Origin: a virus
DNA: 64,000 bases
UHGV virus genome: UHGV-1372779
Strand: one strand, 5' to 3'
The first letter of the stretch is position 1; every line of letters starts with the position of its first letter. Under the pieces are notes generated by a model. It searched no databases. It was not told the DNA's origin and worked only from the letters and a program-made list of their open reading frames with translations. Positions 24,567 to 58,617 of the stretch are shown here, one piece after another. The translations under genes and the position numbers were made by a program.

Positions 24567-27500
24567 TTAATCATCACCCATTCTTCCTTTGATTAGTCTC
24601 CACCCTTCTGATGTATAGATAAATCCGGCTGCTCTTTGTTCTATTAGCCAGAACCATCCATTCATAAGCATTATCTCTATTCTATGAGATCCATAAGTGT
24701 TGGTATTATATATATAACATACTTGTCCTATTCTTCCTCCATTTAAAGAAACATTTCTAGTAGTATCATTAGAATTTATTTCTATGTAAGATATACCATC
24801 CAAATTTAATGGATAGGGATTATCTGAATCTCCAGACGTTATAGTAACAGAAATAGCTTTTGTTAAAGATAGGTCTTTAATTATAGTTTTTCCACTCAAA
24901 ATACATTCATTACTAACTTGGAGGTTATTAAAAACTCCTACAAGACTCCCATTTAGCCTTCCAAAGAATGAATCTTGGTTATACCAATAATTACTAACAG
25001 TATCTTTAGTTCCAAATACTAATCCGAAGATAGACTGTGAAGAAATAGAAGTTTTTACTTTACCCATAGCTAACCCATCTCTGTATCTATCTCCTTCTGA
25101 ACTTCTATCTGGGTCAAAGATTTCATAACTAAAATCTGATAATAGTATATCTCCTATATAATCTCCTACATTAATTTGAAATGCTCCATTTATCACATCC
25201 CCATTCACAAATAATTTACCTCCTTGAGTAACAACAAATGGTGCAATCGGAGTATCACTTGTTCCATTTAGGTTATTCAATACTGTGTTCATAGCTGACT
25301 CTAAAGTTCCTCCTGCCCAGTATCTAACTAGATCATCTCCTGATAAACTACCTTGATCTTTAGATGCAGTAATTCCTGATTTAGGAGCAAGCATGGTAAC
25401 ATCTCCATCTGAATTCCAATACAAATTATTATAGGCTAATAATCCACTACCATCATTATTAAATCTCCAAGGGTTATTATTATCATCACTCATTCTTAAC
25501 CCGTACATAGTTCCATCTGGGAGAAATTTAACATGAGGCCTCTCTACAGTAGTTACTACTCCATCAAGGGAAGTTGATTCTACTAATTCTATTCCTCCTG
25601 TAATACCCTCTTCACTAAATCTCCACTTAGTTATTATATCCTCTCCTGATATGGCTTTTATTTCTATTTTAGAACTTCTCATATAGTCTCCTTCTGGAAG
25701 TTTGCTACCTATATATATGTCAGCTTCTAATATTCTGGGATTTATATATCCATTTTTTATGATCATTCTATTAGAGGTAGCCCAAGATACCATATCTATG
25801 TATCCAAGATATCCTATTTTAGATGCAAAGTCTTCTCTTAACCCAGTTTGAATAGTGTTAAATCTTTCCCAATCAGAGACATTTCCAGGCTTAGAAGTTA
25901 TTCCTTCTTCTATTTCTTCTTTAGTTAATTCTATAGAAGAATTACATACTAATATTTCATAGTCATAATTCATCCAGAAATCTCCAACTGCATAGGGTCC
26001 TTTAGGCACATTCTTAGAAAAATATAGAGTTCCATTTGAACCTAGTATTTTTAAGCTATTACATATGCTAATTTGAAGAGGAACTAAGTCTACTTCTATG
26101 TATGTGGGGTCTTCTGGGTCTTTAGGACTAGGATAAGTAGTCACAACACTCCCATCAATATAACAAGTTGTAGATCCATTTTTAGTATAGTTATAAACAT
26201 TCAAACTAGCTCCTCCAGAAGGAATTTCCATAACTTTTTCTATATACATAGGAGGTCTGTCTGGAAAATTATCACTATATGTGGGATCCATTTTTTTATT
26301 AGGATCAGTATCATAGTTATAGTCTTCACTTCTCATATCTGGAACAACGTATTCTGGATTTTTGATAATTCTCTTTTCGCCTGGGCTATAGTCTCCATTA
26401 TAAAAAGCTAAACAGTCTGAATCTTCATTAGTTATGAATTCTTTTAATAAATGCGCCTTAGAAATGTTTATAGAATTTGCTTCTATAAAATTTCCAACAT
26501 CTACTAAATTTGATTTATTATGTCCATATACAGATGATCTTCCGATTATATAAGAATTATTACTATATAATCCACACTCATTCTTTAAACTTAATCCCCT
26601 ATAAATAGAGTTAGATAAATCTCCAAATTTACATTTAGAATCTTCTGAATATTCTGTATTATTTACTTCTTCTAAAATTTCTACTATAGGTTTATTACTG
26701 TCAAAAGCTGAAAGATAAATTATATTTTGTCTATTTATATCTACTACATTACCAAATTGACACAGTTCATCCCCAACTTCTATCATTCCACTTATATCTT
26801 CTATTACAGTAGGAGATTCATCTTCCTCATCCTCATCTTCTGAAGGTATGTCTTCATCTTCATCTGGATTAGGATACTTACTAAATTGATCTATATCAAT
26901 ATATACTTTACTATCAATTACATCCCTAATCCAAACTATATAATCTTTAGATCTAGGGTATTTTAAAGATTTGCATCTTACTAGATCATTCTTAGTAAAT
27001 GGAAGAAATTCTTCATTAAATGTTAGTTCATATACATCTACATTAACTAGATTACCTGTTTTTATATAGTTTTCATCTACCTCTTCGAACTCCATCTCTT
27101 CTATAATAGAGATTCCTTTAATTATAGCACTGCCCTGAGACATTACTGTGGCCCCTCTTATGGATCTAGCTTTTTCTAGTGTAAGTTCTGGAATATTTAA
27201 ATCATCTCTTACTAATATTGAATCTATCTCTAGAGTATATTTTCCTCCATCTTCATATATACTATATCCAGACCCATCAATACCAGGAGAGAAGTCATAG
27301 GATTCTACATTAGAAGTAGTAATTCCTCCATTTACGGAGGTTTCTATTCTATTATCAACATAAAGGTCTCCTGATATATTAGTATTTACATTTATATTTA
27401 AATTTTCTTCTGATAACTCTATTTTTGGAGATTCTTCATTATTATAGTATATTCCTAAAGAATCTTCAACTAGCTTTAATTTAAATAGTATAGAGTTATT

Positions 27501-28109
27501 ATATAAAGAGACTAGGTCTTCTCCTATTATATTTATTTTAGAATTGAGTATAGGATTTTTGGAGTCCCCAAAAGTTACATTTCCTTTAACAACTCCTCCA
27601 TCTTTTAAATTCAAATATATTTCTTCAAAACCATTAGCGGTTTTTAGAAAATGTCTTCCTTCGCTTATAATAAAGTAAGGATAGTTAATTGGGAGTTCTA
27701 CAGAATCATCAGTTTTATAATTAAGTATCTGCTTTAAATTACCTAATACTAGTTTGATTTGATCTTCAGTTAAGCTTTGTTTATTATTATAGGACAAAAA
27801 TCCTTCAATGCTTCCACCTTCTCCCTGAATAGATAGATTTATTAAAGAATTTCCATATTTTATATAGAATTGTCCTTCATCTTTTGTAAAATATATACCA
27901 TCAGACTTAATATCTGAGGCAGAGGTGACTTCATTGATTATTGGAGGGAAAGTAACATCTATTTTACCATTTTTAATTAGGTTCAGGAAAGAATTCCCGA
28001 ACCTAACTTTAACATTACCTTTTCCATTTAATATAACATCAGTAGTGCCATCGCCTACTATAGTATATATTTTATCTAATATTCTTTCATGTTTTACTAA
28101 CTCTCCCAT
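24567..28109 (-). CDS. Large virion structural protein (1180 aa) with an acidic DE-rich insert.
   Basis: Long ORF; NPDEDEDIPSEDEDEEDE segment; structural-module context. Confidence 0.55.
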   Translation of the reverse strand: MGELVKHERILDKIYTIVGDGTTDVILNGKGNVKVRFGNSFLNLIKNGKIDVTFPPIINEVTSASDIKSDGIYFTKDEGQFYIKYGNSLINLSIQGEGGSIEGFLSYNNKQSLTEDQIKLVLGNLKQILNYKTDDSVELPINYPYFIISEGRHFLKTANGFEEIYLNLKDGGVVKGNVTFGDSKNPILNSKINIIGEDLVSLYNNSILFKLKLVEDSLGIYYNNEESPKIELSEENLNINVNTNISGDLYVDNRIETSVNGGITTSNVESYDFSPGIDGSGYSIYEDGGKYTLEIDSILVRDDLNIPELTLEKARSIRGATVMSQGSAIIKGISIIEEMEFEEVDENYIKTGNLVNVDVYELTFNEEFLPFTKNDLVRCKSLKYPRSKDYIVWIRDVIDSKVYIDIDQFSKYPNPDEDEDIPSEDEDEEDESPTVIEDISGMIEVGDELCQFGNVVDINRQNIIYLSAFDSNKPIVEILEEVNNTEYSEDSKCKFGDLSNSIYRGLSLKNECGLYSNNSYIIGRSSVYGHNKSNLVDVGNFIEANSINISKAHLLKEFITNEDSDCLAFYNGDYSPGEKRIIKNPEYVVPDMRSEDYNYDTDPNKKMDPTYSDNFPDRPPMYIEKVMEIPSGGASLNVYNYTKNGSTTCYIDGSVVTTYPSPKDPEDPTYIEVDLVPLQISICNSLKILGSNGTLYFSKNVPKGPYAVGDFWMNYDYEILVCNSSIELTKEEIEEGITSKPGNVSDWERFNTIQTGLREDFASKIGYLGYIDMVSWATSNRMIIKNGYINPRILEADIYIGSKLPEGDYMRSSKIEIKAISGEDIITKWRFSEEGITGGIELVESTSLDGVVTTVERPHVKFLPDGTMYGLRMSDDNNNPWRFNNDGSGLLAYNNLYWNSDGDVTMLAPKSGITASKDQGSLSGDDLVRYWAGGTLESAMNTVLNNLNGTSDTPIAPFVVTQGGKLFVNGDVINGAFQINVGDYIGDILLSDFSYEIFDPDRSSEGDRYRDGLAMGKVKTSISSQSIFGLVFGTKDTVSNYWYNQDSFFGRLNGSLVGVFNNLQVSNECILSGKTIIKDLSLTKAISVTITSGDSDNPYPLNLDGISYIEINSNDTTRNVSLNGGRIGQVCYIYNTNTYGSHRIEIMLMNGWFWLIEQRAAGFIYTSEGWRLIKGRMGDD

Positions 28110-28124
28110 TGTTTATATTTTAAA

Positions 28125-28445
28125 TCACCCTTCTAGTGCTGCAACTCTTGCTTCTAAGCTAGATACCTTAGAAGCTAAAGTCTGAAGTAATTCTTTATCA
28201 CTATTAGTATAATCATTAGAAGATAGTCCTTTACCAGATACCTTATCCACCTTACCTTCTTCTAACTCATTAGTCTTATTAGTAAATTTAGTGTCTAAAT
28301 CATCTATAGACCCTTCTAACTCATTCTTAGTATCTTCAATAATTTCTAAAGTCTCATCTTGGTTGGAGTTTATCTTCACTACCATATCCCTCAGATTATC
28401 TCCACCCTGATTGTTTGCTAATCTTCCTAAAATAAGTTTATTCAT
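28125..28445 (-). CDS. Small protein carrying the conserved tail-fibre N-terminal anchor motif plus one fibre repeat (GKGLSSNDYTNSDKE).
   Basis: Its N-terminus ILGRLANNQGGDNLRDMVVKIN parallels the N-termini of the 30130-32406 and 32436-39128 fibre genes. Confidence 0.5.
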   Translation of the reverse strand: MNKLILGRLANNQGGDNLRDMVVKINSNQDETLEIIEDTKNELEGSIDDLDTKFTNKTNELEEGKVDKVSGKGLSSNDYTNSDKELLQTLASKVSSLEARVAALEG

Positions 28446-28448
28446 ATC

Positions 28449-28811
28449 TTAATTTATTCCTAATTCTGCACAATCAGAATCAACTATAGATTTAATTTCT
28501 GCTCTTATATTCAAGAAATCTAAATATTTCTGAATATAAGATTCATCTAATAACCCCTCTTTCGCAGAGTTATAATCATTGATTAATTTCTTTTCATCTT
28601 CGTTAGTCCAAATGGACTCAATTGCTGCTTTTAAAATAGTATCACTATCTGGTTGTCCATAGAATACAATCTCATTACATTTATATTGAGTTGCAGGCTC
28701 TTCACCTTCTTCTCTCTCAACTGTAATTTGTTCTATGCCCCATCTATAGAAATACTTATTATTAACTATTTTTTCTAATTTTTCAGGCTGAAAGTCATAA
28801 TATGCGTTCAT
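28449..28811 (-). CDS. Hypothetical acidic protein immediately 3' of the DGR RT, overlapping its stop by 17 nt.
   Basis: ORF track. It is acidic, so it does not resemble Avd. Confidence 0.4.
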   Translation of the reverse strand: MNAYYDFQPEKLEKIVNNKYFYRWGIEQITVEREEGEEPATQYKCNEIVFYGQPDSDTILKAAIESIWTNEDEKKLINDYNSAKEGLLDESYIQKYLDFLNIRAEIKSIVDSDCAELGIN

Positions 28812-29808
28812 AATCTTGTCTAATTAAATGTTTCGGATTATAAATTTTGTTTAATAAATTCTGTGAATTACAATGTTTAGCCCAACTCCTATAACTAGAC
28901 ATTATCATTTTATATTGTCTGTAGCATAAGTATCTTTTATTAGTTCTAGCAGCTAATTTAGCAAACTTCTTCTTTGTCTTTTTTCTTAACAAAGTATGAG
29001 TATGCCTAAATACATATCCTACAAAGTCTATTCCTCTTATGGCAACAGGAAAGACTTGATAATTTTGTTTAACAGTTAATTTTAATGTTGCAAGATATTC
29101 CTTGATTTCTATTAATAAGTTATGAAGAAATTCTTTATTAGAATGTAATATAACTATATCATCGGCATATCTGTAATAAAATTTAACTCCTTTGACTTCT
29201 TTCAACCAATGGTCAAAATATGCTAAGAATAAATTAGCAAAGAATTGTGATAGATAGTTACCTATAGGAACCCCAGGTGCAGAGTCTATTATCTCATCTA
29301 ATAGAGATAATAGTTTTTTATCCTTTATCTTTTTCCTGATTATCTTCTTCAATATATCATGATCTATTGAAGGATAGAATTTTTTAATATCAAGTTTAAG
29401 ACAATATTTAGTTTCCTCTACATTTTGTCTAAGTTCTTTTTTTAATTTTCTAACTATTCTATGTATTCCTCTGTTTTTAATACAACTATATGTATCAGCA
29501 GTGAATACAGAAACCCAAATTGGCTCCATGATATTCATTATAGCATGGTGTACTATTCTATCTGGATAATATGGAAGCCTAAAGATTTCTCTTTCTTTAG
29601 GCTCATATATTTTAAATATTTTATATTCTGAGGTTTTATATGTACCAGATTTTAATTGTTCATGAAGTTTAAGAATATTTTCTTTTCTATTCTTATCATG
29701 TTTCATTACTCCAAAACTTCTGGTTTTGCCCTTTCTAGCTTTAGAATCAGCTAACTCTAGGTTTTCTATACTAATTATTTGCTCAAATAAATTATTGATT
29801 CTTTTCAT
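28795..29808 (-). CDS. Diversity-generating retroelement (DGR) reverse transcriptase.
   Basis: YADD catalytic box (YRYADDIVIL); the DGR-specific motif VPIGNYLSQ (I/LGxxxSQ replacing the group-II QGxxxSP); the TR lies immediately upstream and the VR is in the adjacent gene. Confidence 0.85.
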   Translation of the reverse strand: MKRINNLFEQIISIENLELADSKARKGKTRSFGVMKHDKNRKENILKLHEQLKSGTYKTSEYKIFKIYEPKEREIFRLPYYPDRIVHHAIMNIMEPIWVSVFTADTYSCIKNRGIHRIVRKLKKELRQNVEETKYCLKLDIKKFYPSIDHDILKKIIRKKIKDKKLLSLLDEIIDSAPGVPIGNYLSQFFANLFLAYFDHWLKEVKGVKFYYRYADDIVILHSNKEFLHNLLIEIKEYLATLKLTVKQNYQVFPVAIRGIDFVGYVFRHTHTLLRKKTKKKFAKLAARTNKRYLCYRQYKMIMSSYRSWAKHCNSQNLLNKIYNPKHLIRQDYERIL

Positions 29809-29974
29809 ATTTTTGTTTTCTAATGGGAACTTTCAAATTGCATTTGCATTGCAATTACTACACTATGGTATTTTTGCACTGTTGCACTTTTACTAATACC
29901 CTCTGAAGGGTTTATTTTTTGCCAAGAGGCAAGGCCTTCACAAGTATATATTAGTTTTTGATATTCTTGAAAAC
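29809..29974 (-). ncRNA. Spacer between the DGR TR and the RT, with several short hairpins; candidate structured RNA element of the TR transcript.
   Basis: Non-coding, contains GC-rich hairpins (TTGCCAAGAGGCAA; CCCTCTGAAGGG; TGCATTTGCATTGCAA), and lies between the TR 3' end and the RT start. Confidence 0.4.
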
Positions 29975-30083
29975 ACTAAGCTGGCCGCTGACATTGGCAT
30001 TGGCATTAGACACGCTGTTGTTCGAATTACAGTAGCTGAAACTGGAGTTGGCACTGTTATTACAAGAGCTACCAAGCAGCAAC
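29975..30083 (-). repeat. DGR template repeat (TR), 109 bp.
   Basis: 89 of 109 bases identical to the VR. All 20 mismatches fall at plus-strand T, which is adenine on the coding (minus) strand. In the VR frame the TR encodes runs of AAY (Asn) and AGY (Ser) codons. Confidence 0.85.
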
Positions 30084-30129
30084 AAGGTTGTGAACAGCCT
30101 ATATTATATTGTTTTTAACTCATAATATT

Positions 30130-32406
30130 CTAGATTAGGTAACAAAGCCGGCCGCCGACATCGGCATAGGCAGCAGACACGCCGCGGTGCGAATAACAGT
30201 AGCCGAAACCGGAGAGGGCACCGCTATAACAAGAGCCACCAAGCAGCAACGTACGCAAGCTACTTGAGCTTATAGATGTATAAAAATAATCACACCAATA
30301 AGTAGTAGAACCTCCACCATTATCAGAAGGAGCAAATTCACCATTCTCTCCAAAGATTAATTTAGTCACATAACCATCTTTCCTTGGGACATTTCCAACT
30401 TTAGTGAATCCTTCTAAGGTATCTCCGAATTTAGTTTTATCACTAGTTGTATAGAACTCACTTGTGCCTCCATCAGCATCAGTTTTAATATCAAATATAG
30501 CTCCTTCTACATTAGTCCAAATATGACCAAAAGGATTCTCAATTCCTCTATATCTACAACAAGCTAATGTAGTAGGAGTATCAACCTTATAATCATCTGG
30601 AAGATTTACAATAACTTCTCCAGATCCAGATGCCAATGAGTTAGATGCTCCACATTTTAACATTGGATAATAGCTATTATAAGCACTCCAATCAGAAGAA
30701 GCTAATGTAGTAGCTCCATTTCCTAAACCACCTTGCTTATATCCTTCAGCAGTTAGTTCTGAATTAACAGCAGCCTGGCAGTTTCTGTTAGCATATTCTA
30801 CATAATATAACCAGAATACAGTCTTCCAAGATTCATAATCCATTTCATTCCAATTATCCCCTCTATTTCTAGCTCTAGTTCTCATAGTAGCTCTAGTCAT
30901 ATATGTAGCACATTTTCCTAATTGAGATTTAGATAAAGTATCCCAATCAGCTTGATTGTTTCCACCTCTATATTGTTCTGTTTCATTACATACAGAGGCT
31001 AGTTTATTATTAGTTCTATCTAAAGCAGCTTCATAAGCTCCTACATAGACCTTAGGAACTTTAGTAAATCCAGTACATTTACCTTCTGATAAGTAACATC
31101 TTCTAATATTACCGTCTTCTTCAAATTTTCTGTAATGTTCTGGTATTTCTATCATAACTTGTCCATCAGTTCCATCTAGATTAGATGCTTCTCCTGTGAT
31201 TTTCTTACTCCAATCATTAGGATTTAAGTAATAATTTACACTTCCATCATCATTTAAAAGACAAGCTTTCATTTTAGATTGAATAGGCAGAGATTTATGT
31301 AATGACATATCTCCTATTCTTGTACAAGTTGGATCAGATACAGTAGTATCCCATTCTATACCATAGACTTTGTTTAGATAAATCTCTCCTTCTGAGTTAA
31401 ATGAGAAATCAGAGGATAATTTAACTGCTCCTAGAGTAGATTCTGTTGCAGGTCTAAGGTTATCATTAACTGTATCTTCTATATTATCTAACATTGATTT
31501 ATAATTATTCGAAAAGTCATTGGTGGAAAGAGATTTACCTTCGACTTTATCTACTTTATTTCCTAGTTTAGTTGTTAATTCAGCATTGGTGTCTAGTTCA
31601 TCTAATTTAGTTTTTAGATCATTAGTGAAGTCATTAGTTGATAATGATTTACCATCAATCTTGTCCACTTTGTTAGATATAGTTGCTACTAGATTCTTCT
31701 CAGCTGTTGTATAATTGTTATCAGAAAGAACCTTAGAACCGTCTTTATCGACCTTAGTTTCTAAATCAGATTCAATAGTTGCAATCTTCGCAACTTGTTC
31801 TTTTTCTGCTGTAGTATAATTATTATCTGATAACACTTTTGATCCATCCTTATCTACTTTTGTGTCTAATTCAGTATTAATTGTACTGATATTTTCATTG
31901 ATTGTGTCTATATCACCTTCTATAGTTGAGATGTTTCCCTCTATAGTTGTAATATCAGATTCAATAGTAGGAATTTTGTTTACATTTGTTTTATCTCCAT
32001 CAGAGAAGTTATTATCTGATAATACTTTGTCTCCGTCTTTATCGACCTTGTTAGCTAAAGTTGTTTCTATGTTAGAAATTTTAGCTACTTGTTCTTTTTC
32101 TTGATTTGTATAATCATTAGTTGAGAGACCTTTTCCTTCTATTTTATCTACTTTAGTATTTAGTTTTTCTTGTGTTAATTGCTCTAAGTCAGAGATAGAA
32201 TTATTAACTGATGTTTCTAGATCATTTAATTTCTTATCAGTGTCTTTTTCTAGATTAGAGATACTTTCAGTGACTTCTTTTTGTAGTTCAGTAACTTCCT
32301 CCTTAGAAGCTGTTTCTGAAAGGTTTCCATTTAGTTTAACTACAATGTCTCTTAAAGTATCTCCTCCCTGATTATGGGGAGGGATACCAATTTTAAATTT
32401 TTCCAT
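30130..32406 (-). CDS. DGR target: tail fibre or receptor-binding protein. It has the N-terminal anchor motif, multiple phage-fibre repeats (GKxLSxND(F/Y)Tx), and a C-terminal C-type-lectin/FGE-like fold containing the VR.
   Basis: The VR lies within the last 37 codons. The C-terminus (…TTYWCDYFYTSIS…LLLGGSCYSGALSGFGYCY…) is typical of DGR CLec-fold variable proteins. Confidence 0.8.
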   Translation of the reverse strand: MEKFKIGIPPHNQGGDTLRDIVVKLNGNLSETASKEEVTELQKEVTESISNLEKDTDKKLNDLETSVNNSISDLEQLTQEKLNTKVDKIEGKGLSTNDYTNQEKEQVAKISNIETTLANKVDKDGDKVLSDNNFSDGDKTNVNKIPTIESDITTIEGNISTIEGDIDTINENISTINTELDTKVDKDGSKVLSDNNYTTAEKEQVAKIATIESDLETKVDKDGSKVLSDNNYTTAEKNLVATISNKVDKIDGKSLSTNDFTNDLKTKLDELDTNAELTTKLGNKVDKVEGKSLSTNDFSNNYKSMLDNIEDTVNDNLRPATESTLGAVKLSSDFSFNSEGEIYLNKVYGIEWDTTVSDPTCTRIGDMSLHKSLPIQSKMKACLLNDDGSVNYYLNPNDWSKKITGEASNLDGTDGQVMIEIPEHYRKFEEDGNIRRCYLSEGKCTGFTKVPKVYVGAYEAALDRTNNKLASVCNETEQYRGGNNQADWDTLSKSQLGKCATYMTRATMRTRARNRGDNWNEMDYESWKTVFWLYYVEYANRNCQAAVNSELTAEGYKQGGLGNGATTLASSDWSAYNSYYPMLKCGASNSLASGSGEVIVNLPDDYKVDTPTTLACCRYRGIENPFGHIWTNVEGAIFDIKTDADGGTSEFYTTSDKTKFGDTLEGFTKVGNVPRKDGYVTKLIFGENGEFAPSDNGGGSTTYWCDYFYTSISSSSLRTLLLGGSCYSGALSGFGYCYSHRGVSAAYADVGGRLCYLI
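30142..30250 (-). repeat. DGR variable repeat (VR), 109 bp, ending 9 nt before the target gene's stop codon.
   Basis: Position-by-position alignment with the TR; the 3' end is GC-rich (GGCGGCCGGCTT). Confidence 0.85.
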
Positions 32407-32435: not shown

Positions 32436-35400
32436 TTATGAAGTTTTAAGAGCTTCTAATTGTTCTAATACCCATTCTTGAGTAGCTAATTTTTTTATTG
32501 CTGACGCACCTAAACTTGATCCCCAGTAAGCACCATCAGATTTAATAAGAATGCAAGAATTATCACTTGATCTTTGGATAAAAGGTCCTCCACTAGTTTC
32601 AGACCATCCAACTAAGAATCTATTGTAACCTTGTACTCTGAAGATTTGGATTATATCAGTTCCATCAGGGTTATGATTATTAATTACAAAAGGAGTTGAA
32701 CCATTTCCACTGATAGTTAATGGGCCAATTTGACCTCCTCTTTCTGTAATTATTTCATATTTTGCCCCAGTTGTTATTTGATGATATAATTTTTGATCAG
32801 CAGCAGTTCTTAAAGTCACATGTGTTGCCGCACTATTTCCTACTACTACTCCACCATCGTTGGAGAACCAGTACCATATTCCTCCTTTAGTACAGTTTCC
32901 AATACCTCCACCAGCTCCTTCACTTCCAGCATAGAAATCTAAACTTTCTCCTGTAGATAATGCTCCTCCTTTTGATGTGAGTACATTATATTCGGTAACT
33001 GTCACGTCTTCGCCTGCTGTATATGCTTTAGTTTCTCCTACACCTAAGGTTAAAGCTCCAGCATGTATTTTTAGATAAGTTGGAGTTCCTGTTGTTGCGT
33101 ATGGGACATTATATCCAGCTTTCCCCATATTAGGATTGATAAATCTATACAGTACTAATGCTCCAGAAGAATATTCTGAACCCATTCCTCCTCCCATAGT
33201 TCCTGCGTAATATAGACCATATCCTAACTGACCATTAGTAATATTATTAGAGTATCCTACTAACATAGCAGTATCTGATTGGATTCTTCCTGATGAAAAT
33301 ATTCCGCCACTAGGTACTAAAGTTGTATTTGAATAATTAGGTGATACTAATAATGAACCAACTTTTAATTTTTTAGCTGTTCCGGTGTTTAATAAGCCTA
33401 TTTCATCAGCATTTCCTTCTAAGTGCATTCCAGTGCCACCAAAGTAATAATTATTAGCATAAATGTTAGCTGTATACACTTTTTGGAATGCCCACTCACT
33501 TGTACCTAATGATGACATACCTCCTGATGATAGATCAACCTTTGAATTAGGAATAAATCCAGCTGTTGGAGATCTTAGCCATGTTAATTCAACACTATTC
33601 TCAATAGACCATAATCCAGGGTAAGCACCTTCACCTATAACATATCCTGCTGGCTTTTCATCTGCAGTTATTACTCTCTTCCAGTTGGATGAATCACCGT
33701 ACCCTAGGTTGTTGGGAGTTCGGAAGTACATGTAACGAGTACTACCAGCGACATTATGATTAACGTCAAAGGCAAGTTGAGGCATTAATGAGAGTGAACT
33801 TCCTGATCCACTACCCCATATTTGGAGAACTGTACCATATTGCATATTAGTCGGACCGTTTATCCAGTAAGAAGGTCCTGTGTAATTATATGCAAGTTTA
33901 CCCTTATCTGGTCCTACTAAATCTATGTTTAAATCATAGGATGTTTTGTCTTCATGAACGAACCCGTAAGTCCACTTAGTGTTAGGTATGACAGATTCCC
34001 AGTTGAATTCATCAAGTATTTTATAATTAGTAGAGTTTTTAGTATGATATAAATCACTGTCTCCACTTCTGATATATGTTACTCCAATAGCTCTACCTAG
34101 ATGTTGTGAATCAGCATTATTATACAAAATAAGAAAAGTATCAGTTCCTGAATCTACCAACTCCCATGATGATGGCACATATAATTTATCTGGATAGAAT
34201 TTATATTGAGCAGAATAATATGCTACATCTCCTAACCCTATGTAAGCATACTTAGCATTAGTATCATTCCCGTATCCTGCGAACCTAATCATAGAATTTT
34301 GATTACTATTAGCCTTTAAACTTAAACCACGATCCCATCCCTCACCTTCTGAAACTGATAAATTAACTGTAACATCATTATCTGAACCTATTATAAACGA
34401 CCCAACGTTAAACTGTCCAGCAGTGAAGGAGTTATTACCTGTAAAGACATTATCTCCAGACTTTGTTACTGGATCTGAGAGGTTGCTAGCATCCCATATC
34501 TTATAATCAGTTAATCCCTTTCTATGAATCAAATCCACGGCTCCACTCCTTATCTTGGTGGTTCCTGATGAACGACCAAAAGTAGCAAGACTTTCACCTT
34601 CCAAATTAATAATAGTGTTATTTAAATCTTTCAAACACCATATTGATGGAACATTCCAACTTATTATATCAAACTTGTATTGTGCAGTACGAGAAGGAAC
34701 TCTACCAAAACGGAGATAAAAGTAATCAACATCACCTTCACTACCCCAACACCCGATCGAAACTGGGATTTTTCCAAGATTATTGTTGGTCCACGTAATA
34801 CCACTTTCAAAATTACTAGTTTCTGGTATGTGTATTACCATTGATCCTTCACTCAATACCTCTAACGGACCCACTGAAAAATTTCCTGCGACGAAACTGT
34901 TAGTCCCGGTGAAAGCGTTATTCCCTGATTTAGTAACAGGATCAATAAGATTATTTCCATCCCAAATCTTATATTCTGAACCAGATGTATAATGTACTAA
35001 ATCAGAATTAGAATATAAAACAGTCTTACCACTTGCTACTCCAACTCCTAATACATTATTACTGTCTAATCCTAGAACAGTTCTGTTATTCCCTTCTGAA
35101 TCTTTAATTATATACCCAGAATTATTAGGAGTTATAAATGCAGATCCTTCTATTTGAGCATCAGATGATAGAATATTCTCTTCTGATCCAGATACCTTAG
35201 TGCCATTAGCAAAATATAAATCACCTGTTAATTTATTCTCTGAACCAGCTGATAAGGGCAGATAATCAGTTAATACTACTTTCTTATAAGTACCATCATC
35301 CGATAGAAATCTATTACCTGTTCCAGATTTAGGCAAGGCAAAAAAATTCTCTTGAACAAAAATAGAACTTCCCGCAGTAATTTGAACACCATAATTTGCA

Positions 35401-38400
35401 ATATTTAAATCTAAAATTGCAGATCTGGAACCAGGAGTAGTACTAGTTATATAACTAGCAAATAATATTACTGAATCTCCAATAGAGGCAACAGCATTTA
35501 CTAATCTAAGTTCTGGCTCACTTCCAAATTTAAGATAAATATCTCTTCCAGATTTATGAGCCTGATAAATTTCTGTTATTTCTTCAGAAGTATATACTTT
35601 TTCTGTATCATTTATATCAATAACTATAGGCGATATAGAAGGAACTTGAATTTCTTTATATGTACCATCATTAGATAAATACTTATTTCCATTCCCAGTA
35701 CCTATAAGATTAGTATACTCACTACTAACTTGAATAGAACTACCTTCAGATAATTCATATTTATAGGAGATTAATATAGTATCTAATCCTGTATCTCCTG
35801 ATTTTTTCTCATGTAATATTTTAGGAACATAAAAACTTAAATAAGCCATTCCTTCTCCCTGACCTCTTTGTCCTACAACTTCTGTTGCTCTTATTATATT
35901 TTCTCCATCCAATATAAAGATAGGAACTCCTTTTGAATAAGCTTCTAATATACTATGTATTTCTTCTCTAGTGTATACTTTATTATCCTCTGAATCTATA
36001 ATTATTGGGGATATAGAAGATTCTATTTCCTTATAAGTTCCATCATTGGATAAAAATTTAGTTCCATTACCTAAAGAATCTAATACAAAATCCCTATCTC
36101 CATTAAACATTAAAGTAGGATCTTTTAATGTTACAGTATTATTAGCTTTGTCTAGTAAATAAGTGCCTACACTAATCATTGCATAATTTATACTGTTTCC
36201 TGCAATTATATTAAGAGAAATTATTGTATCACTTATAGGAATTACTGTACAAGGATAAATAGTTCCATTTACATTTAAATAAATCGCATACTTAGATTCT
36301 GCCTTTTCTTTAATCTCATCAAAATAATTTAATAATTCTGAATTATCATTGAATTGAGGTATAATATAAACTTTATCTAATAAGGACTCTTTAATACTAA
36401 ATTCTCTATAAGGAACCTTATTCTCATCTTCTTTTTTATCTCCTATATCAAATTGTTCTTTATTAGGCAGTGGAATTTCAGTAACATATTCTTTTAACCA
36501 TGCAGGATTATATAATCCTCCATAAGGCATTACACTTGAATTTGAAGGATAGGGATAAATTGTCGGATAGTTTTCTACTATTATTTCATTATTTTCAACT
36601 TTATGAGAACTGAAAGTTAAATAGAAATACTTATCGACTCTATAAGAGGATAAAGAAGGGTTTGCAAAATTTGACAAAGATCCATCAGGGATTCTACAGT
36701 TAAACTCTAAATAATTCCCATTCATTGACATTTGAACATTTAGAGGCAAAATTTGTGAATATCTTATATTTAAATTCTCTTTGTCCGCATCTGGCATATA
36801 GCCTCCTATCGCTGGGTTCTTTAAAAAGCAAGTTCTTATAAATATCGGAGTTCCTTCTTTAACTGCTTGGATAAATTTATTCCAAAAATCTAAGGTATAA
36901 AATTTAGGGTAAAGAACAAAACTCGGATATTTATCATAATCCACACCTGCGAAATCCCCATATCTAGACATATTTGAATACATTTGACTTAAAGCTCCAT
37001 AAATAGTATAGATGCCTCCAGTTCCTGTAACATTGGGATTCTCTTGCTCAGCAAATGTCATGTCCCAAACAAAGCTTCCTCCTTTAACTTCTAAATATTC
37101 ACCATTATCAGATAAATATTTATTACCTTCTCCACTAGTAATAATCTTATCAACTTTAGATTTATCAGAATCAGAATAATCATTACTAGATAATCCCTTA
37201 CCTTCTTCTTTGTCAACCTTCCGATTTAATAACTCCTTAATATCATTAATCTCTTCTCTAGAAATATTATCTCCATACTTAATACCTTGGAACATAATAT
37301 ATCTATTATCAGTAATGAAGTATAAAGTACCTTGATCTATCTCATTTAAAGATGAATATTCTTGAGAAGTTACATATTTTAACTTAATTTCTTGATCTTC
37401 TCCATCCCATTTAAATTGGGCTACTAACCCATCTTCAGTTTTAACTAATCGAACTCCACTATCACTTTTAGCTAAAACTAAATTAGCTTGAAGTCCTATA
37501 CTTGTTTGGATTAATTCAACAGTAGGAAGAGGATTAGAGTTATCTAATGATATACTAGAAGGTCTTTTTATAATAATAACATGAAATGTACTTTCAATAG
37601 TAATCTCAGTTGTAGTAGTTCCGTCTGTAATGACTAAGAAAATATCCCTATTAGTGAAATTTAAATACTCTTGTCTTATAACTGAATATGTAATAACATT
37701 AATAGGCTCAGCAGCTCTAAGACTGAATGGAGAAACATCCGATCTATTTATAGAATTTAAAACAATGTGTCTATTATTTATAATAGCATTAGCTATTTTA
37801 TTATAAATTTCTTCAGTTACATATTCTACTTGTAGATCCTCTATGTTTATAATCTCAATATCAGAGAATATAATTCCTTCTCCAGTTATTTCTACAAATG
37901 TTCCATTATCCATAAGAGCCTTGTTTCCGGCCCCAGTTAGTTCTGGATAACTGTCTAACTTATTCTTTCTTGCTTCAGTTAAATCATATGTAGATAATCC
38001 TTTTCCTTGAACCTTATCAACTTTGTTAATAATAGTTCCTACTAATGTTTTTTCTTCACTTGTGTAATCATTACTGGATAATCCTTTTCCAGGCTCTTTA
38101 TCTACCTTATTATCCACTGACTCTTTAGTTGCAAGTTCAACTTTCTCAGTTTTGATTAAATTATTGAGCTTGGAGATAATTATATTTTTCTCTGTTAAAT
38201 TATTATCCTTAACTGTTAATATAATCTCATTATCAGTGTCTGATATTAATATGACTGATTTAATTAATCCTGTATTATCAGTAGTATAAATATCTGCATT
38301 ATTCTCTATAGCTAGAACTAATCTATTGTAATTCTCATCTGATATTCTTCCTCCGCTTGGTATATCATTTATTTCTGATAAAATTAAAGTTTCTGAGGAT

Positions 38401-39128
38401 GGAGCTAAAGATTCAGTTAAACTAGGAGATCCTATTAATTCCTTAGTATTAGAATTATATGTAAATTTAACTGTTATTAAATTTTCTCCAGTTATAAATT
38501 TTAGCTCATGTGCTATTTCATTATCTGAAACAATAGTAGATAATATAGATTGATGAGGAATAAGATTAGTAGTTGAAGAATTGTCTTGAATAGATAACTC
38601 AACACTGTTACTATTAGAAGGGTCTTTTAGAGCCTCTCCAACTAATTTTAAATCCTCCTCATCTATAAATTCTAGAGGTTTAGTTCTTATTCTTATAACT
38701 CTAAAACCACTTATATTATATTCTCTTTTACTATTTTCTGAAGTTACATTAAGAATATTACCCTCAGAATCTAAATCGCAAGTAATAATATAAGTACTAG
38801 ATACAATCTTACCATCTTTTATTATAGATCCTTCAAAAATCAAGTTTACTTTATCATCTGAGAACTCTATATCAGAAAGGAAATGATAAATTCCGTCATA
38901 GTAAACATAAACTAAATAATTTAGCTCATTACTTATCTTATCATTTATTACTTGTATTAGCTTCTCAATGTTGTTTATTGTTATTAAATTATCTGGATCA
39001 ATAGAAACTCCTCCTTGTCTAAGAAGATCTTCTATCAATGAGAAATTATAATTTAACTTAACAACAACATCTCTAAGTAAGTCACCTTGAAAATTAAATG
39101 GATACCTACCTATTCTAAATCTCTCCAT
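32436..39128 (-). CDS. Giant tail-fibre protein (2230 aa).
   Basis: N-terminal anchor motif (RIGRYPFNFQGDLLRDVVVKLN), fibre repeats, a YLPLSAG fibre motif, and modules shared with the 1740-aa fibre. Confidence 0.65.
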   Translation of the reverse strand: MERFRIGRYPFNFQGDLLRDVVVKLNYNFSLIEDLLRQGGVSIDPDNLITINNIEKLIQVINDKISNELNYLVYVYYDGIYHFLSDIEFSDDKVNLIFEGSIIKDGKIVSSTYIITCDLDSEGNILNVTSENSKREYNISGFRVIRIRTKPLEFIDEEDLKLVGEALKDPSNSNSVELSIQDNSSTTNLIPHQSILSTIVSDNEIAHELKFITGENLITVKFTYNSNTKELIGSPSLTESLAPSSETLILSEINDIPSGGRISDENYNRLVLAIENNADIYTTDNTGLIKSVILISDTDNEIILTVKDNNLTEKNIIISKLNNLIKTEKVELATKESVDNKVDKEPGKGLSSNDYTSEEKTLVGTIINKVDKVQGKGLSTYDLTEARKNKLDSYPELTGAGNKALMDNGTFVEITGEGIIFSDIEIINIEDLQVEYVTEEIYNKIANAIINNRHIVLNSINRSDVSPFSLRAAEPINVITYSVIRQEYLNFTNRDIFLVITDGTTTTEITIESTFHVIIIKRPSSISLDNSNPLPTVELIQTSIGLQANLVLAKSDSGVRLVKTEDGLVAQFKWDGEDQEIKLKYVTSQEYSSLNEIDQGTLYFITDNRYIMFQGIKYGDNISREEINDIKELLNRKVDKEEGKGLSSNDYSDSDKSKVDKIITSGEGNKYLSDNGEYLEVKGGSFVWDMTFAEQENPNVTGTGGIYTIYGALSQMYSNMSRYGDFAGVDYDKYPSFVLYPKFYTLDFWNKFIQAVKEGTPIFIRTCFLKNPAIGGYMPDADKENLNIRYSQILPLNVQMSMNGNYLEFNCRIPDGSLSNFANPSLSSYRVDKYFYLTFSSHKVENNEIIVENYPTIYPYPSNSSVMPYGGLYNPAWLKEYVTEIPLPNKEQFDIGDKKEDENKVPYREFSIKESLLDKVYIIPQFNDNSELLNYFDEIKEKAESKYAIYLNVNGTIYPCTVIPISDTIISLNIIAGNSINYAMISVGTYLLDKANNTVTLKDPTLMFNGDRDFVLDSLGNGTKFLSNDGTYKEIESSISPIIIDSEDNKVYTREEIHSILEAYSKGVPIFILDGENIIRATEVVGQRGQGEGMAYLSFYVPKILHEKKSGDTGLDTILISYKYELSEGSSIQVSSEYTNLIGTGNGNKYLSNDGTYKEIQVPSISPIVIDINDTEKVYTSEEITEIYQAHKSGRDIYLKFGSEPELRLVNAVASIGDSVILFASYITSTTPGSRSAILDLNIANYGVQITAGSSIFVQENFFALPKSGTGNRFLSDDGTYKKVVLTDYLPLSAGSENKLTGDLYFANGTKVSGSEENILSSDAQIEGSAFITPNNSGYIIKDSEGNNRTVLGLDSNNVLGVGVASGKTVLYSNSDLVHYTSGSEYKIWDGNNLIDPVTKSGNNAFTGTNSFVAGNFSVGPLEVLSEGSMVIHIPETSNFESGITWTNNNLGKIPVSIGCWGSEGDVDYFYLRFGRVPSRTAQYKFDIISWNVPSIWCLKDLNNTIINLEGESLATFGRSSGTTKIRSGAVDLIHRKGLTDYKIWDASNLSDPVTKSGDNVFTGNNSFTAGQFNVGSFIIGSDNDVTVNLSVSEGEGWDRGLSLKANSNQNSMIRFAGYGNDTNAKYAYIGLGDVAYYSAQYKFYPDKLYVPSSWELVDSGTDTFLILYNNADSQHLGRAIGVTYIRSGDSDLYHTKNSTNYKILDEFNWESVIPNTKWTYGFVHEDKTSYDLNIDLVGPDKGKLAYNYTGPSYWINGPTNMQYGTVLQIWGSGSGSSLSLMPQLAFDVNHNVAGSTRYMYFRTPNNLGYGDSSNWKRVITADEKPAGYVIGEGAYPGLWSIENSVELTWLRSPTAGFIPNSKVDLSSGGMSSLGTSEWAFQKVYTANIYANNYYFGGTGMHLEGNADEIGLLNTGTAKKLKVGSLLVSPNYSNTTLVPSGGIFSSGRIQSDTAMLVGYSNNITNGQLGYGLYYAGTMGGGMGSEYSSGALVLYRFINPNMGKAGYNVPYATTGTPTYLKIHAGALTLGVGETKAYTAGEDVTVTEYNVLTSKGGALSTGESLDFYAGSEGAGGGIGNCTKGGIWYWFSNDGGVVVGNSAATHVTLRTAADQKLYHQITTGAKYEIITERGGQIGPLTISGNGSTPFVINNHNPDGTDIIQIFRVQGYNRFLVGWSETSGGPFIQRSSDNSCILIKSDGAYWGSSLGASAIKKLATQEWVLEQLEALKTS

Positions 39129-42000: not shown

Positions 42001-42309
42001 TTAGGATTTTAAATTATTTTCTATCTGCAATTCACACATGCGATATTTTGTATAGAAGTCTTTATCTAAGCCTTTAAGTGATTCACATTTGTTTACTGAT
42101 CTAATGATTATACTATGATGTTTATCATAGTATCTTGATAATCTATAGAAGGAGATGTAGTACTTAACATGCAATATGTGGAATAATACACTCCTTGCAT
42201 CAGTATGAGATCTAAATTTTCTATTTCCTCTAAGATCTTCTAGAGTTATATTGAATACTTTACAGACTATTTCTTCTATTTTAGGAATAAGGTTCATATT
42301 CTCATTCAT
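42001..42309 (-). CDS. DnaA C-terminal (domain IV)-like helix-turn-helix DNA-binding protein.
   Basis: The pattern LEDLRGNRKFRSHTDARSVLFHILHVKYYISFYRLSRYYDKHHSIIIRSV resembles Bac_DnaA_C. Confidence 0.4.
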   Translation of the reverse strand: MNENMNLIPKIEEIVCKVFNITLEDLRGNRKFRSHTDARSVLFHILHVKYYISFYRLSRYYDKHHSIIIRSVNKCESLKGLDKDFYTKYRMCELQIENNLKS

Positions 42310-54851: not shown

Positions 54852-55128
54852 TTAAGTCTATTTTTTCTCCTACACTAAATTTAGTTAAATTGAGGTTTCT
54901 ATTTAAGAGATCCTCTCTTACATAGTCTAGAAACTCATCTATTGAAGTACATTGTACATAGATTTTACATGTAGGAGTAAGAAAATCTTTATTCATATAA
55001 AGACTAAGAATAAATCCATCCTCTTTTTCTTCTATCTTCATTTTTCCTACATATATTGCTTCATATACTTCAAGTATTATATCTTCTATTTTGCAAATTA
55101 GCTCTTGCTCTTGCGACTTTGTCATCAT
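54772..55128 (-). CDS. Hypothetical protein (118 aa).
   Basis: ORF track. Confidence 0.4.
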   Translation of the reverse strand: MMTKSQEQELICKIEDIILEVYEAIYVGKMKIEEKEDGFILSLYMNKDFLTPTCKIYVQCTSIDEFLDYVREDLLNRNLNLTKFSVGEKIDLNDYKKRNRRAGQENSENKSYNLGSCL

Positions 55129-56731
55129 TTATATCATATTGTAAATTAGCTAAATCTTGTAAATCTTGAATTGGATCAGGCTTAACTCCATAGTGTTTAA
55201 TCCCATTATCATCATACCAATATCCAAAAGGTTTCATCTTATTTGCATTCATTTTCTTTGCAACAGCTCCCCATGTTCTCATCTCTTGATCACCTATTTC
55301 ACACATCCCCATCGCAGCAATAATATCGAATTTTCTCTTGTCTTCAAAAGAGTATTTACTTAACTCTTCTAACATAGCTAAATCATCTATTGTAAAGCAA
55401 TATTCCAACACAAAATCAGCTATAAGTTCTAGATAATATTCAATTGTTTGTTTAGATGGGTATACCCCAAACATATCAGTATTAGTTACTTTATTAGTAG
55501 GGTTAACTGAGCTTGGCCGCCTCATTAAAAGACCTTGCTTTTTTCTATCCTTAAAATGGTTTACAATAGCAGTTCTTGAACTTTCAAGTACAGCTTGACA
55601 ACCATAAAATTCTAATAATTTAATTGTTTGATTATATGCTTCTTTAATATTTCTAGGACGATCTTTATATATAGCCACATATTTAGGAGGCTCCAATCCA
55701 AATGTTCTTCTTTTAATTACTAAACAGTAATCAGAAACATCTTTTTGACCAGTCGATTGATCTATACCTTGGTCAATAGAGTCAATTCCTGCTACATACA
55801 AATTCTTAAACAGAGCTCCATTCTCATCATGTCTGGGAAGCTCATATATTCTAACTTTGCCATTAGGAGAAGGTAAAAATTTGAGAATGTCTTGATTTAA
55901 ATCTTTACTATAGGAGTAGTCTACTATTCCAACTTTAGGTTTAATTCCGGAACCATGAACTTTAATATCCGTTATTCTAGCTGCTATAGCTACTGAATCA
56001 AAGATATTATCACCCTGTCTAGAAAGTGCTTCATCTGGGTTGTAACAATATTCAGCACAATATGTAAGATAACCTTCTGGAGATCCAGCTTTGGCATCTC
56101 TTTTCTTATTATAGTACTCAATCGCTTTTTTCTTATTACATACTCCTCTTTTATCTATAATTCCATCTATAATAACTACACTATATGCAGGAATAAAATA
56201 AGATGTAACTACATATTCACCATCTGCCGTGTGATTATGTTTATATGGAAGTATATCATATTCTTTTGGGTTATAAAATAATTCATTTAATCCAGCTACG
56301 GCAGGACCTTCATCACCTCCAGTACCATATCCTATCTTAAATCCTATTCTAGATCCACCCACTATAATAAGAGCATCACCTTGAATCCATTTTTTAATCA
56401 AAACTGGATCAGATCCAACCTCTTCATATAATAACATCTCAGCTCTATCACCTCTAACCTTACTAGGTTTATCAGCAACAATTCCAGTAATCATAGATCC
56501 AAAACCAGACTCATTACCTTCTCTATCTTTCTTAGAGGCTTTTTTCTGAGTAGCTGTATTAACAGCTTGTCTAAGATGTTTAAACCCTCCTTCTGTTTCT
56601 GTATTTAAATAGTCTAATTGTCTCCAACATTTTTCTAATGTCTTAGAAACAAATAGATCTGTGAATGCTGTGTATATAGCTTGTTGTCTTCTCTTAACTG
56701 TATAAAGATTTACACCTAAACAGGCTCCCAT
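55070..56731 (-). CDS. terL: Terminase large subunit, exon 2, containing Walker B and the RNaseH-like nuclease domain.
   Basis: MLLYEE (Walker B hhhhDE) and the nuclease motif LYVAGIDSIDQGIDQSTGQKDVSDYCLVI. Confidence 0.7.
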   Translation of the reverse strand: MGACLGVNLYTVKRRQQAIYTAFTDLFVSKTLEKCWRQLDYLNTETEGGFKHLRQAVNTATQKKASKKDREGNESGFGSMITGIVADKPSKVRGDRAEMLLYEEVGSDPVLIKKWIQGDALIIVGGSRIGFKIGYGTGGDEGPAVAGLNELFYNPKEYDILPYKHNHTADGEYVVTSYFIPAYSVVIIDGIIDKRGVCNKKKAIEYYNKKRDAKAGSPEGYLTYCAEYCYNPDEALSRQGDNIFDSVAIAARITDIKVHGSGIKPKVGIVDYSYSKDLNQDILKFLPSPNGKVRIYELPRHDENGALFKNLYVAGIDSIDQGIDQSTGQKDVSDYCLVIKRRTFGLEPPKYVAIYKDRPRNIKEAYNQTIKLLEFYGCQAVLESSRTAIVNHFKDRKKQGLLMRRPSSVNPTNKVTNTDMFGVYPSKQTIEYYLELIADFVLEYCFTIDDLAMLEELSKYSFEDKRKFDIIAAMGMCEIGDQEMRTWGAVAKKMNANKMKPFGYWYDDNGIKHYGVKPDPIQDLQDLANLQYDINDDKVARARANLQNRRYNT

Positions 56732-56734
56732 TTC

Positions 56735-57771
56735 TGACCATCCTCATGGTCTTGTTGTCCTATAAGCTTTTTATCCTATAGTTCTGGGAGTTTCCTCCTT
56801 ACTTATTACCGAAATAGAAATAATAAGATATTCTGATTTAATCATCAGACAGTTCAGCGTACATTTTCACCCAAACAATGGGGCCGACACTCTTGGAGAT
56901 ATTATTTCAATCTCTACGCGTTACGGTGGTCAATTAATAATTGACTTACCTCGGTATTAACATAGTAATTAAATTTATTGAACTTTCTACTCATATAAAA
57001 ATTAGAATTATCATATAGTAAATGGAATATTTTAGAAACCTCCTTCTTTGATGATGTACTTATTCTATACATATCATCTCTAGATAAATAATTTAAGTTG
57101 ATTTTAATATTATTTAATCTAAAGAAATCTATTATATCTTCTAATATAGAAGAATATTTAGAACAGATCTCAAACTTAAATCTAAACCTATCTGATTTCC
57201 CTTTTTCAGAAGCAATCCATCCAATAATAGATCCATCTCCATCAAAATACCCTCTAATAAAATGAGGAATGAGATCTTGAGAAATATTAGGAATTTTTAA
57301 TTCTTTATAAGTTTTATTATAACCAAATCCTATATCATTTAGAGAATTTACCAATATGGTGCTATTTATATCAACTCCTTCTTGAGGTCTTCCAATATAG
57401 GTTTTATCTCCTCTTCCTTTAATTTCATAAGAATCAATATGAAACCTTCTACTATTAGGAGAAATATATTTAGATATTAACTCTATAATGTCCCTGTCTT
57501 CTTCACATAATTTAACTCTAAAAGTTTTTCTTTTCTCATCAATAGACCCATCAGCAGCAAAAAATCCTAATAGGTATGCTTGAATTTCAGTTACAATATT
57601 ATTAAAAAATTCATGTCTAACTTCTCTTTTACTTCCATTATTAGTATATAATGGACAAATCTTGTTAAGAATCACTTCTTGGTCATTTACATTCATAATT
57701 TTTATATTTTTAATCGTGTTATTTTTTAATCACCTTAGCCTTCACCGATTTTGCCGGATTTAAAATATACA
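56735..57771 (-). mobile_element. Intron (probably group I) carrying a LAGLIDADG homing endonuclease; it interrupts terL within the Walker A region.
   Basis: The flanks are non-coding with multiple stops and contain GC-richer structured segments and hairpins (CTTATTATTTCTATTTCGGTAATAAG; TCTGATGATTAAATCAGA). The homing-endonuclease ORF is in a different frame from exon 2 and is separated from exon 1 by stops. Confidence 0.55.
56914..57696 (-). CDS. LAGLIDADG homing endonuclease (double-motif).
   Basis: Two motifs, LLGFFAADGSI and IRGYFDGDGSI. Confidence 0.8.
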   Translation of the reverse strand: MNVNDQEVILNKICPLYTNNGSKREVRHEFFNNIVTEIQAYLLGFFAADGSIDEKRKTFRVKLCEEDRDIIELISKYISPNSRRFHIDSYEIKGRGDKTYIGRPQEGVDINSTILVNSLNDIGFGYNKTYKELKIPNISQDLIPHFIRGYFDGDGSIIGWIASEKGKSDRFRFKFEICSKYSSILEDIIDFFRLNNIKINLNYLSRDDMYRISTSSKKEVSKIFHLLYDNSNFYMSRKFNKFNYYVNTEVSQLLIDHRNA

Positions 57772-58617
57772 TTACTGTATATTGGGACAGGCATTTATCC
57801 CTCTAGACTTTAATGCGAAGACATTTAGTCCTAATTTTTTACAAAGTTCCACATAGTGGAAATATTTATATTGTTCTGCAATAAATGTAGGAAATGAATC
57901 ATTTCTTACAGTTACCTTAGCCTTAGAATCAGATTTAAGAACAGCAGGAGAATCCATTCTATAGAAATTTAAATAGAAGTAATTATCTCCTGTTAAAGTA
58001 TATCCATTATATGTATAACCATATATACATCTTCTTTGTTGCTCTAACCAATATTTAACATAAGAAGGACCATTTATCTCAAATGAACTATACTTGCCAG
58101 TAGCTTCTTTAGTCATAGCAGGCTCTCTAAACCAATCTGGATCAAAATCTAATCCCTGTGTTTCAGTGATTGGTCTATATCCAGTTAATTCATAAGATAA
58201 ATCTGGGTCAAAATATTCTATTGGATCATCTATTCTCACATCCCAATTTGTGAACTTAACATCTTCTCCATTTACATGATATAACTTTCTAAATTCTTCA
58301 TTATCAAAGTTTTCTCTAGTCTGATCTGCAATTTCTAAAGATTGTCTTATGTAATCATTATCGTACAAAACTAAATCTTCTTCTTTTGGATCATCTAATA
58401 AATGCTCTGGAATGTGATAAATAGTTGCTATTTCTTCATCTACTAAATCTTGAGAGTTTATTTTATCTAATAATTCCTGTGTTGTTTCTCTTTTACGATA
58501 AGCTCTTTTAGGCTTAGATTCCTTTTCGAGTTTAGCTTTTTCCCTGGCTTTCTTCTCTTCCTCTTTCTTTCTAAGCTTTTCAGCATTACCTTTAGCCCCA
58601 AAAGTCTTCTTAGCCAT
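57772..58617 (-). CDS. terL: Terminase large subunit, exon 1 (N-terminal part, ending at the start of a lambda-like Walker A, …ALKSR); the first ~100 aa are Lys/Glu-rich.
   Basis: It ends with KSRG, resembling the lambda gpA P-loop KSARVGYS. Exon 2 begins near (E)MGAC, and Walker B lies about 95 aa further on. Confidence 0.5.
   Translation of the reverse strand: MAKKTFGAKGNAEKLRKKEEEKKAREKAKLEKESKPKRAYRKRETTQELLDKINSQDLVDEEIATIYHIPEHLLDDPKEEDLVLYDNDYIRQSLEIADQTRENFDNEEFRKLYHVNGEDVKFTNWDVRIDDPIEYFDPDLSYELTGYRPITETQGLDFDPDWFREPAMTKEATGKYSSFEINGPSYVKYWLEQQRRCIYGYTYNGYTLTGDNYFYLNFYRMDSPAVLKSDSKAKVTVRNDSFPTFIAEQYKYFHYVELCKKLGLNVFALKSRGINACPNIQ

Follow-up and report, generated by a model that had tools for sequence, protein, structure and literature searches.

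We analysed a 64,000-nt stretch of the virus genome UHGV-1372779 (hereafter the window), in which positions 28449-32406 hold a diversity-generating retroelement (DGR) on the minus strand. The order on that strand is target gene, variable repeat (VR), template repeat (TR), and reverse transcriptase (RT); the features are listed in Table 1. VR closes a tail-fibre gene but for the three codons for YLI (9 nt) and a TAG stop, whereas TR is located between genes and ends 166 nt before the RT begins.

Table 1. Features of the DGR locus and comparison loci (window positions unless a locus is named; ORF, open reading frame; IMH, initiation of mutagenic homing)
Feature	Position	Strand	Description
Target gene, tail-fibre protein	30130-32406	-	758 aa; ORF; phrog_5302 'tail protein', E 2.9e-119
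C-terminal receptor-binding domain	30133-31365	-	residues ~348-758; FGE-type C-type-lectin fold, TaqVP class
VR (variable repeat)	30142-30250	-	109 nt; encodes target residues 719-755; 9 nt before stop
IMH-like 3' end of VR	30142-30159	-	fixed TR differences in all strains
VR-TR gap	30084-30141	-	58 nt; last three codons, stop codon, AT-rich sequence; without ORF
TR (template repeat)	29975-30083	-	109 nt; non-coding; 27 adenines; 9 AAY codons in VR frame
TR-RT spacer	29809-29974	-	166 nt; probably 3' part of DGR RNA
Rfam RT-17 (RF03020) motif	29840-29936	-	full model length; 39.4 bits; E 1.7e-6
RT-17 in relatives	L005 2623-2717; L006 4918-4999; L073 4917-4994		covariance-model match
DGR RT	28795-29808	-	337 aa; pI 9.9; GNYLSQ at residue 183; YADD at 214
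120-aa acidic ORF	28449-28811	-	pI 4.35; overlaps RT stop by 17 nt; phrog_11557
120-aa ORF comparison loci	L084 5078-6427; L088 3471-3899; L089 4001-4360

A repeat finder returned a single 109-nt direct repeat pair, 82% identical, and a scripted comparison of TR with VR gave 89 identities and 20 mismatches, with 20/20 mismatches at TR adenines. Twenty of the 27 TR adenines are changed in VR (A>G, 11; A>T, 5; A>C, 4), and the hypergeometric probability that 20 mismatches all fall on 27 adenines among 109 positions is 2.5e-16. The homology between the two repeats ends abruptly on either side, and in the target frame the TR adenines occupy codon positions 1 or 2 exclusively. The recomputation reproduced what a preliminary description of the locus had claimed for the repeats, namely their coordinates and 109-bp length, the counts of identities, mismatches, and changed adenines, the restriction of mismatches to TR adenines (with the specificity test given above), the 9 nt between VR and the stop, the 58-bp gap, and the 166-bp spacer, and the TR and VR peptide translations that it quoted were exact. 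It had also proposed looking for further VR copies: an A-masked TR pattern found only the known two repeats in the window (0 expected in shuffles), and a second, remote VR was found neither in the window nor in a 129.6-kb IMG/VR contig. We then scanned 84 RT-related loci, comprising 83 fetched loci (L001-L083) and the window region, and 76 of them carried a recognisable A-specific TR/VR pair. Most of these relatives have 58-150 nt between VR and TR and a TR-RT spacer of 90-170 nt, so that a compact layout is the rule.

The RT matches Pfam RVT_1 (1.3e-19) and phrog_1423 (2.6e-126). In the PDB it is matched best by 8ub7 (E = 2.6e-47, over residues 2-313, 305 residues), whose sequence tblastn aligns at 100% identity with the brt gene of Bordetella phage BPP-1; group II intron RTs match at ~1e-18. 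The YADD and IGNYLSQ motifs, from which the preliminary description had recognised a DGR-type RT, are both intact, bRT is the best solved relative, and GxxxSQ is a DGR-type RT motif (PMC12386605). On the basis of these motifs and of the profile and structure-library matches, rather than of a tree, we assign the RT to the DGR clade. Its nearest deposited relatives are those of the Suoliviridae phages cr115_1 and cr53_1 (62.7% identity) and of crAssphage LMMB (55%). An alternative would be that the RT comes from a group II intron, a retron, or a defence element, and that the hypervariability of VR results from diversifying selection on, or recombination of, fibre alleles. The NCBIfam group II, retron, and Drt RT models do match the protein weakly; all of these scores are, however, far under the cut-offs, the best solved match is bRT, the GxxxSQ motif is of the DGR type, and Rfam finds neither intron RNA domains nor retron msr/msd.

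The second part of this alternative can be weighed against the variation among natural strains. Strain L004 (IMG/VR) is 97.7% identical to the window over 5.1 kb, with a 100% identical RT protein and an identical TR; its VR differs from that of the window at 11 positions, 11/11 of which are at TR adenines (P = 3.4e-8). Contigs of strains beyond L004 were gathered through protein variants and pattern scans. In the first five strains, 19/19 variable VR positions fell on adenines (P = 2.8e-15), and eight strains yielded seven distinct VR alleles with 21/21 variable positions at TR adenines. Of the nine related contigs in which a TR copy is present (the window among them), five had an identical TR and four had 1-2 A/G changes, for a total of two A/G polymorphisms among strains. 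An invariant VR had been named in the preliminary description as an observation that would refute it; VR is heterogeneous between strains, at TR-adenine positions alone, and TR is near-constant. The fibre module is a recombination and indel hotspot, which favours selection or recombination as the source of the variation, but neither process can limit 21/21 variable sites to the adenines of a nearby non-coding repeat, and we give this alternative practically no credence.

The same restriction is visible at the protein level. All 15 protein variants that are 95-97% identical have distinct VR peptides (15/15), and 4-8 residue types occur at precisely the sites templated by the nine AAY codons and the TAC codon; of the other 393 residues, 27 columns vary, mostly between 2 residue types and never among more than 4. 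In a sister family of 56 loci, non-adenine TR polymorphisms are mirrored in the cognate VR, which is direct evidence of TR-to-VR flow. From these strain-level data we conclude that the DGR appears to have operated in the recent history of the phage population.

The fibre repeats and C-type-lectin (CLec) C-terminus that the preliminary description had attributed to the target were both recovered: the protein carries six copies of a KVDKxxGKxLSxNDYT-type fibre repeat (repeat family D1), and structure comparison matches its C-terminus to solved DGR variable proteins. The C-terminus was predicted by AlphaFold with a 66-sequence alignment (a single-sequence run gave a pLDDT of 34.6). Pfam and NCBIfam do not see the CLec domain of the target, which is recognised by structure comparison alone. 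Thermus aquaticus TaqVP (PDB 5vf4) has the same fold class as the target C-terminus at a sequence identity of 16%, but TaqVP is a protein of a bacterium and lacks a phage-fibre stalk such as the target has.

The N-terminus of the target carries a motif common to neighbouring fibre genes. At 28360-28445, 32320-32406, and 39040-39128 (minus strand), one motif opens the genes for a 106-aa product, the 758-aa target, and a 2230-aa fibre, which follow one another: M.(K/R)(F/L).(I/L)G......(Q)GGD.LRD.VVK(L/I)N, perhaps a common module by which several fibres attach to one baseplate. With its coiled coil and single KVDK..GKGLS.NDYT repeat, the 106-aa product resembles a fibre in miniature. The flanking fibre genes (24567-28109 and 32436-39128, minus strand) are strongly divergent among the near-identical strains L004, L084, L086, and L087. 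The gene for the 2230-aa fibre lacks ~3.7 kb in L004 and encodes 2031 or 2036 aa in other strains, the neighbouring 1180-aa fibre is <91% identical or 1210-1211 aa long in other strains, and differing numbers of repeats give the target itself a length of 658 to 758 aa. These differences in length and sequence indicate that the module varies by recombination and indels besides the DGR.

Three differences between TR and the 3' end of VR are shared by every strain, namely two CAG>CGG and one AGT>TGT (index 94, 101, and 106). The two fixed A>G changes give a GC hairpin found only in VR, GTCGG-CGG-CCGGC (30147-30159, minus strand), followed by TTTGTT. TR (GTCAGCGGCCAGC) cannot form this hairpin, which could be what marks VR, not TR, as the homing target. 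In the 56-locus sister family, the extreme 3' VR site is constant whatever TR carries, and this is probably an IMH-like zone that is not transferred. By analogy with BPP-1, we infer that the GC-rich 3' end of VR is the homing site (IMH). A BPP-1-like GC hairpin after VR occurs sporadically in the relatives.

The spacer between TR and RT had been described as structured, and the match to RT-17 over the full length of the model agrees with this. A core, CCTTGCC..GGCAAAAAA..TWGGTA, is conserved in 52 distinct spacers. RT-17 scores above the gathering score at the same position in relatives (L005, 46.7 bits; L073, 42.9 bits; L006, 42.7 bits) and was detected in 7/7 short-spacer relatives examined. 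The P1 hairpin of the spacer (UGCC/GGCA) is conserved, with one compensatory pair, and RNAalifold on nine spacers recovered P1 alone, so that the remaining RT-17 structure rests on the Rfam model (RF03020), the inner P2 stem of which misfits in the window copy. The loop of the first hairpin holds a large insertion in many relatives. In the passages of PMC5737381 that concern these motifs, RT-10 sits at the equivalent place in the BPP-1 DGR and is the sole motif named as a likely DGR part; other RT motifs, RT-17 included, are linked there to other DGRs as speculation (Weinberg et al. 2017, PMC5737381). For the DGR lineage of the window, RT-17 appears to be the counterpart of RT-10 in BPP-1.

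We regard it as almost certain that the window holds a functional DGR without Avd, of the order target-VR-TR-RT, in the tail-fibre module of a ~180-kb, distantly crAss-like gut phage. In the mechanism that we propose, TR would be transcribed together with the 166-nt 3' spacer and its RT-17 motif, and, by analogy with BPP-1, this RNA intermediate would be primed for reverse transcription by the spacer RNA itself. The cDNA would then take the place of VR in the fibre gene, with the outcome that nine AAY codons and one TAC codon are rewritten on the ligand-binding face of the TaqVP-like C-type-lectin domain. The rewritten tip would change the receptor specificity of the fibre, with a presumed effect on host range.

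Several observations count against this interpretation. No Pfam match to Avd (PF05635) was found among twelve small ORFs of the 64-kb window (genome ~180 kb), and no other recognisable accessory gene was found in the window. BPP-1 needs a GC-rich hairpin downstream of VR, and after the VR of the window no hairpin has a perfect stem of 5 bp or more. The RT-17 match in the window falls 1 bit short of the gathering score (39.4 vs. 40.4 bits), and activity was read from assembled strains rather than from within-population reads or cDNA. With regard to Avd, neither the 58-nt VR-TR gap nor the 166-nt spacer contains an ORF, so that the gap leaves no room for avd, and about a quarter of DGRs are without an accessory-gene homologue (PMC7290462).

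The lack of a detected Avd and of a canonical hairpin after VR would also be compatible with a fossil DGR, an element now inactive whose TR/VR pair records past mutagenic homing. Yet the RT ORF is intact and its protein is 100% conserved between strains ~2% apart in DNA. Seven VRs occur in eight near-identical strains and 15/15 VR peptides are distinct, with zero non-adenine differences in VR DNA. Decay would, moreover, add non-A mismatches between TR and VR, of which there are 0/20. We therefore consider a fossil very improbable and retain the functional, Avd-less DGR.

The RT is followed by a 120-aa acidic ORF, which we considered as an Avd replacement on account of its overlap and fusion with the RT. 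The fusion, which is in frame, was seen in strains L084 and L085 and stems from loss of 10 nt between ATTA repeats; the ATG of the 120-aa ORF is intact. Homologues of the ORF come after fibre genes of the same type in Porphyromonas phage005b and crAss cr111_1, with no RT nearby, which indicates that the ORF travels with the fibre gene. We rejected the candidate because the product is acidic and its homologues accompany RT-less fibre genes. Judged from its sequence and neighbourhood, the ORF is not Avd and is probably not part of the DGR; it is a conserved downstream partner of this fibre gene type, and the TR-RT unit looks as if it had been inserted between the fibre gene and the 120-aa ORF. 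Our guess is that the product is a fibre assembly or partner protein.

Not all TR adenines behave alike. In the family of the window, 8/27 TR adenines deviate from the rest: for seven that stand before G (AGC, AGT, CAG), VR reads G in every or almost every strain, and for the last one (AGT) it always reads T. At such AG sites, TR templates Ser or Gln and the protein always has Gly or Arg. Over the 76 loci (41 distinct TRs), an adenine followed by G corresponds to G in VR in 96% of 236 cases. At internal AG sites, i.e., those flanked by ordinary variable sites (four TR clusters), VR has G in 149/154 cases, A in 5, and C or T in 0; at other internal adenines VR has A in 44%, T in 25%, C in 18%, and G in 14%. 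TRs toggle between A and G at AG sites (15 vs. 6 distinct TRs at one site; index 13 in the family of the window), and VR stays G. The exceptions in the family of the window are one A kept and one T; such rare exceptions imply that AG sites are still transferred.

Amino-acid selection for Gly alone was considered for the fixed A>G sites and is contradicted by synonymous third positions (GCA>GCG: 54 G, 3 A, 0 C/T; TCA>TCG: 5 G, 1 A). Because synonymous sites follow the AG rule, protein-level selection cannot explain it. We propose, with the chances in our view evenly divided, that this Avd-less RT lineage copies a template A with a 3' G near-deterministically as G, 'AG' being a cryptic 'GG': the RT, having copied the template G, would insert C again opposite the next adenine. 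Nucleotide-level selection or a repair bias may instead have produced the pattern, and for the AG sites nearest the 3' end the explanation may simply be that they fall within the IMH.

The proposed copying rule has a parallel in BPP-1 bRT, for which the base 3' of the adenine (the '-1' base) is the main determinant of error, C is the commonest misincorporation, and slippage that re-uses the previous template base has been proposed (PMC12875486; 10.1101/2025.08.18.670894). The average rate of bRT is ~30%, vs. ~97% at AG sites in the RT lineage of the window. In the natural BPP-1 TR, 20/23 mutable adenines are in AAC (PMC12875486), so there are few if any AG sites there. The AG rule would take the '-1' base effect and the slippage model to a natural extreme; no statement of a near-deterministic AG rule was found in the papers searched. 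From strain to strain, no more than about 19-21 of the 27 adenines in the window element do vary, and these mutable adenines (nine AAY codons and the TAC codon) give, by arithmetic, ~1.5e11 peptides, not 4^27.

The DGR of the window is of a type already described in several crAss-like phage groups. In the part of PMC7290462 that cites Wu et al. 2018, the avd-less target-VR-TR-RT cassette of crAss-like phage DGRs corresponds to lineage 3 / CLec3 of those authors. The Avd-less DGRs of crAssphage LMMB (Intestiviridae), of the Suoliviridae phages cr53_1 and cr115_1, and of zeta phages share the architecture, the tail-fibre target, and the GxxxSQ RT; the RTs of the Suoliviridae and Intestiviridae are 55-63% identical to that of the window, the gene order in cr53_1 is the same, and the ...G(S/G)RLC ending typical of CLec3 VRs is also present in the VR of the window. 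The phage of the window differs from the known crAss-like DGR phages in its much larger genome (~176-185 kb) and in the longer N-terminal fibre stalk of its target. The preliminary description had compared the element to the receptor-binding-protein diversifier of BPP-1 (Mtd), and the comparison holds: the prototype DGR (Mtd/Avd/TR/bRT) has a homologous RT, the same adenine-specific mutagenesis signature, and, as the site of VR, the 3' end of a CLec-fold receptor-binding tail-fibre gene. The structured RNA between TR and RT is RT-10 in BPP-1 (PMC5737381), where the window has the match to RT-17.

A megablast search of 16 kb against 50,697 phage records gave no match; the phage thus has no close deposited relative, and its placement rests on protein searches. 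The large terminase (TerL) is 29% identical to that of Suoliviridae and 45% identical to that of an unclassified 117-kb gut phage, and the portal matches phrog_6547. Related contigs measure 176-185 kb, and the GC content of the window is 30%. Zeta crAss-like phages have genomes of ~155-177+ kb (Table 1 of PMC12386605), 18/43 genomes of this group carry DGRs with GxxxSQ RTs, and most zeta crAss-like phages have the avd-less target-VR-TR-RT cassette (PMC12386605). The contig sizes and GC content match the zeta group, and on this basis we place the ~180-kb genome, provisionally and from protein matches rather than a tree, as probably distantly crAss-like and of the zeta type.

Three further loci of the window deserve mention. 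The large terminase is seemingly split between two products at 55070-58617 (minus strand): residues 168-273 of the 57772-58617 product correspond to positions 71-187 of the TerL profile, and the 55070-56731 product to positions 242-734. A LAGLIDADG homing-endonuclease ORF (56914-57696, Pfam 1.8e-9) lies between the two parts, and the terminase gene is probably interrupted by an intron or endonuclease. A GIY-YIG nuclease ORF (1616-2038, plus strand; Pfam 4.1e-7) runs against the direction of nearly all other genes and probably encodes a further free-standing homing endonuclease. Inside the structural gene block, a 102-aa ORF (42001-42309, minus strand) carries a DnaA C-terminal helix-turn-helix domain (Pfam 1.8e-9).

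The AG-to-GG regularity may be the one new item among these results. If true, estimates of DGR diversity as '4^(number of TR adenines)' would be too high, and the rule would account for TRs that code for Ser or Gln where VR always codes for Gly or Arg, the conserved ...SRLC ending included; it would also be a predictive rule for engineering DGR templates and synthetic TRs. In other respects, knowledge of DGRs is unchanged by the window, which adds a well-supported, evidently active DGR to the poorly sampled ~180-kb crAss-like gut phages. From the series of strains (8 DNA alleles and 15 protein alleles) it can be read which residues of the fibre tip vary, and this helps studies of host range and receptors in uncultured crAss-like phages.

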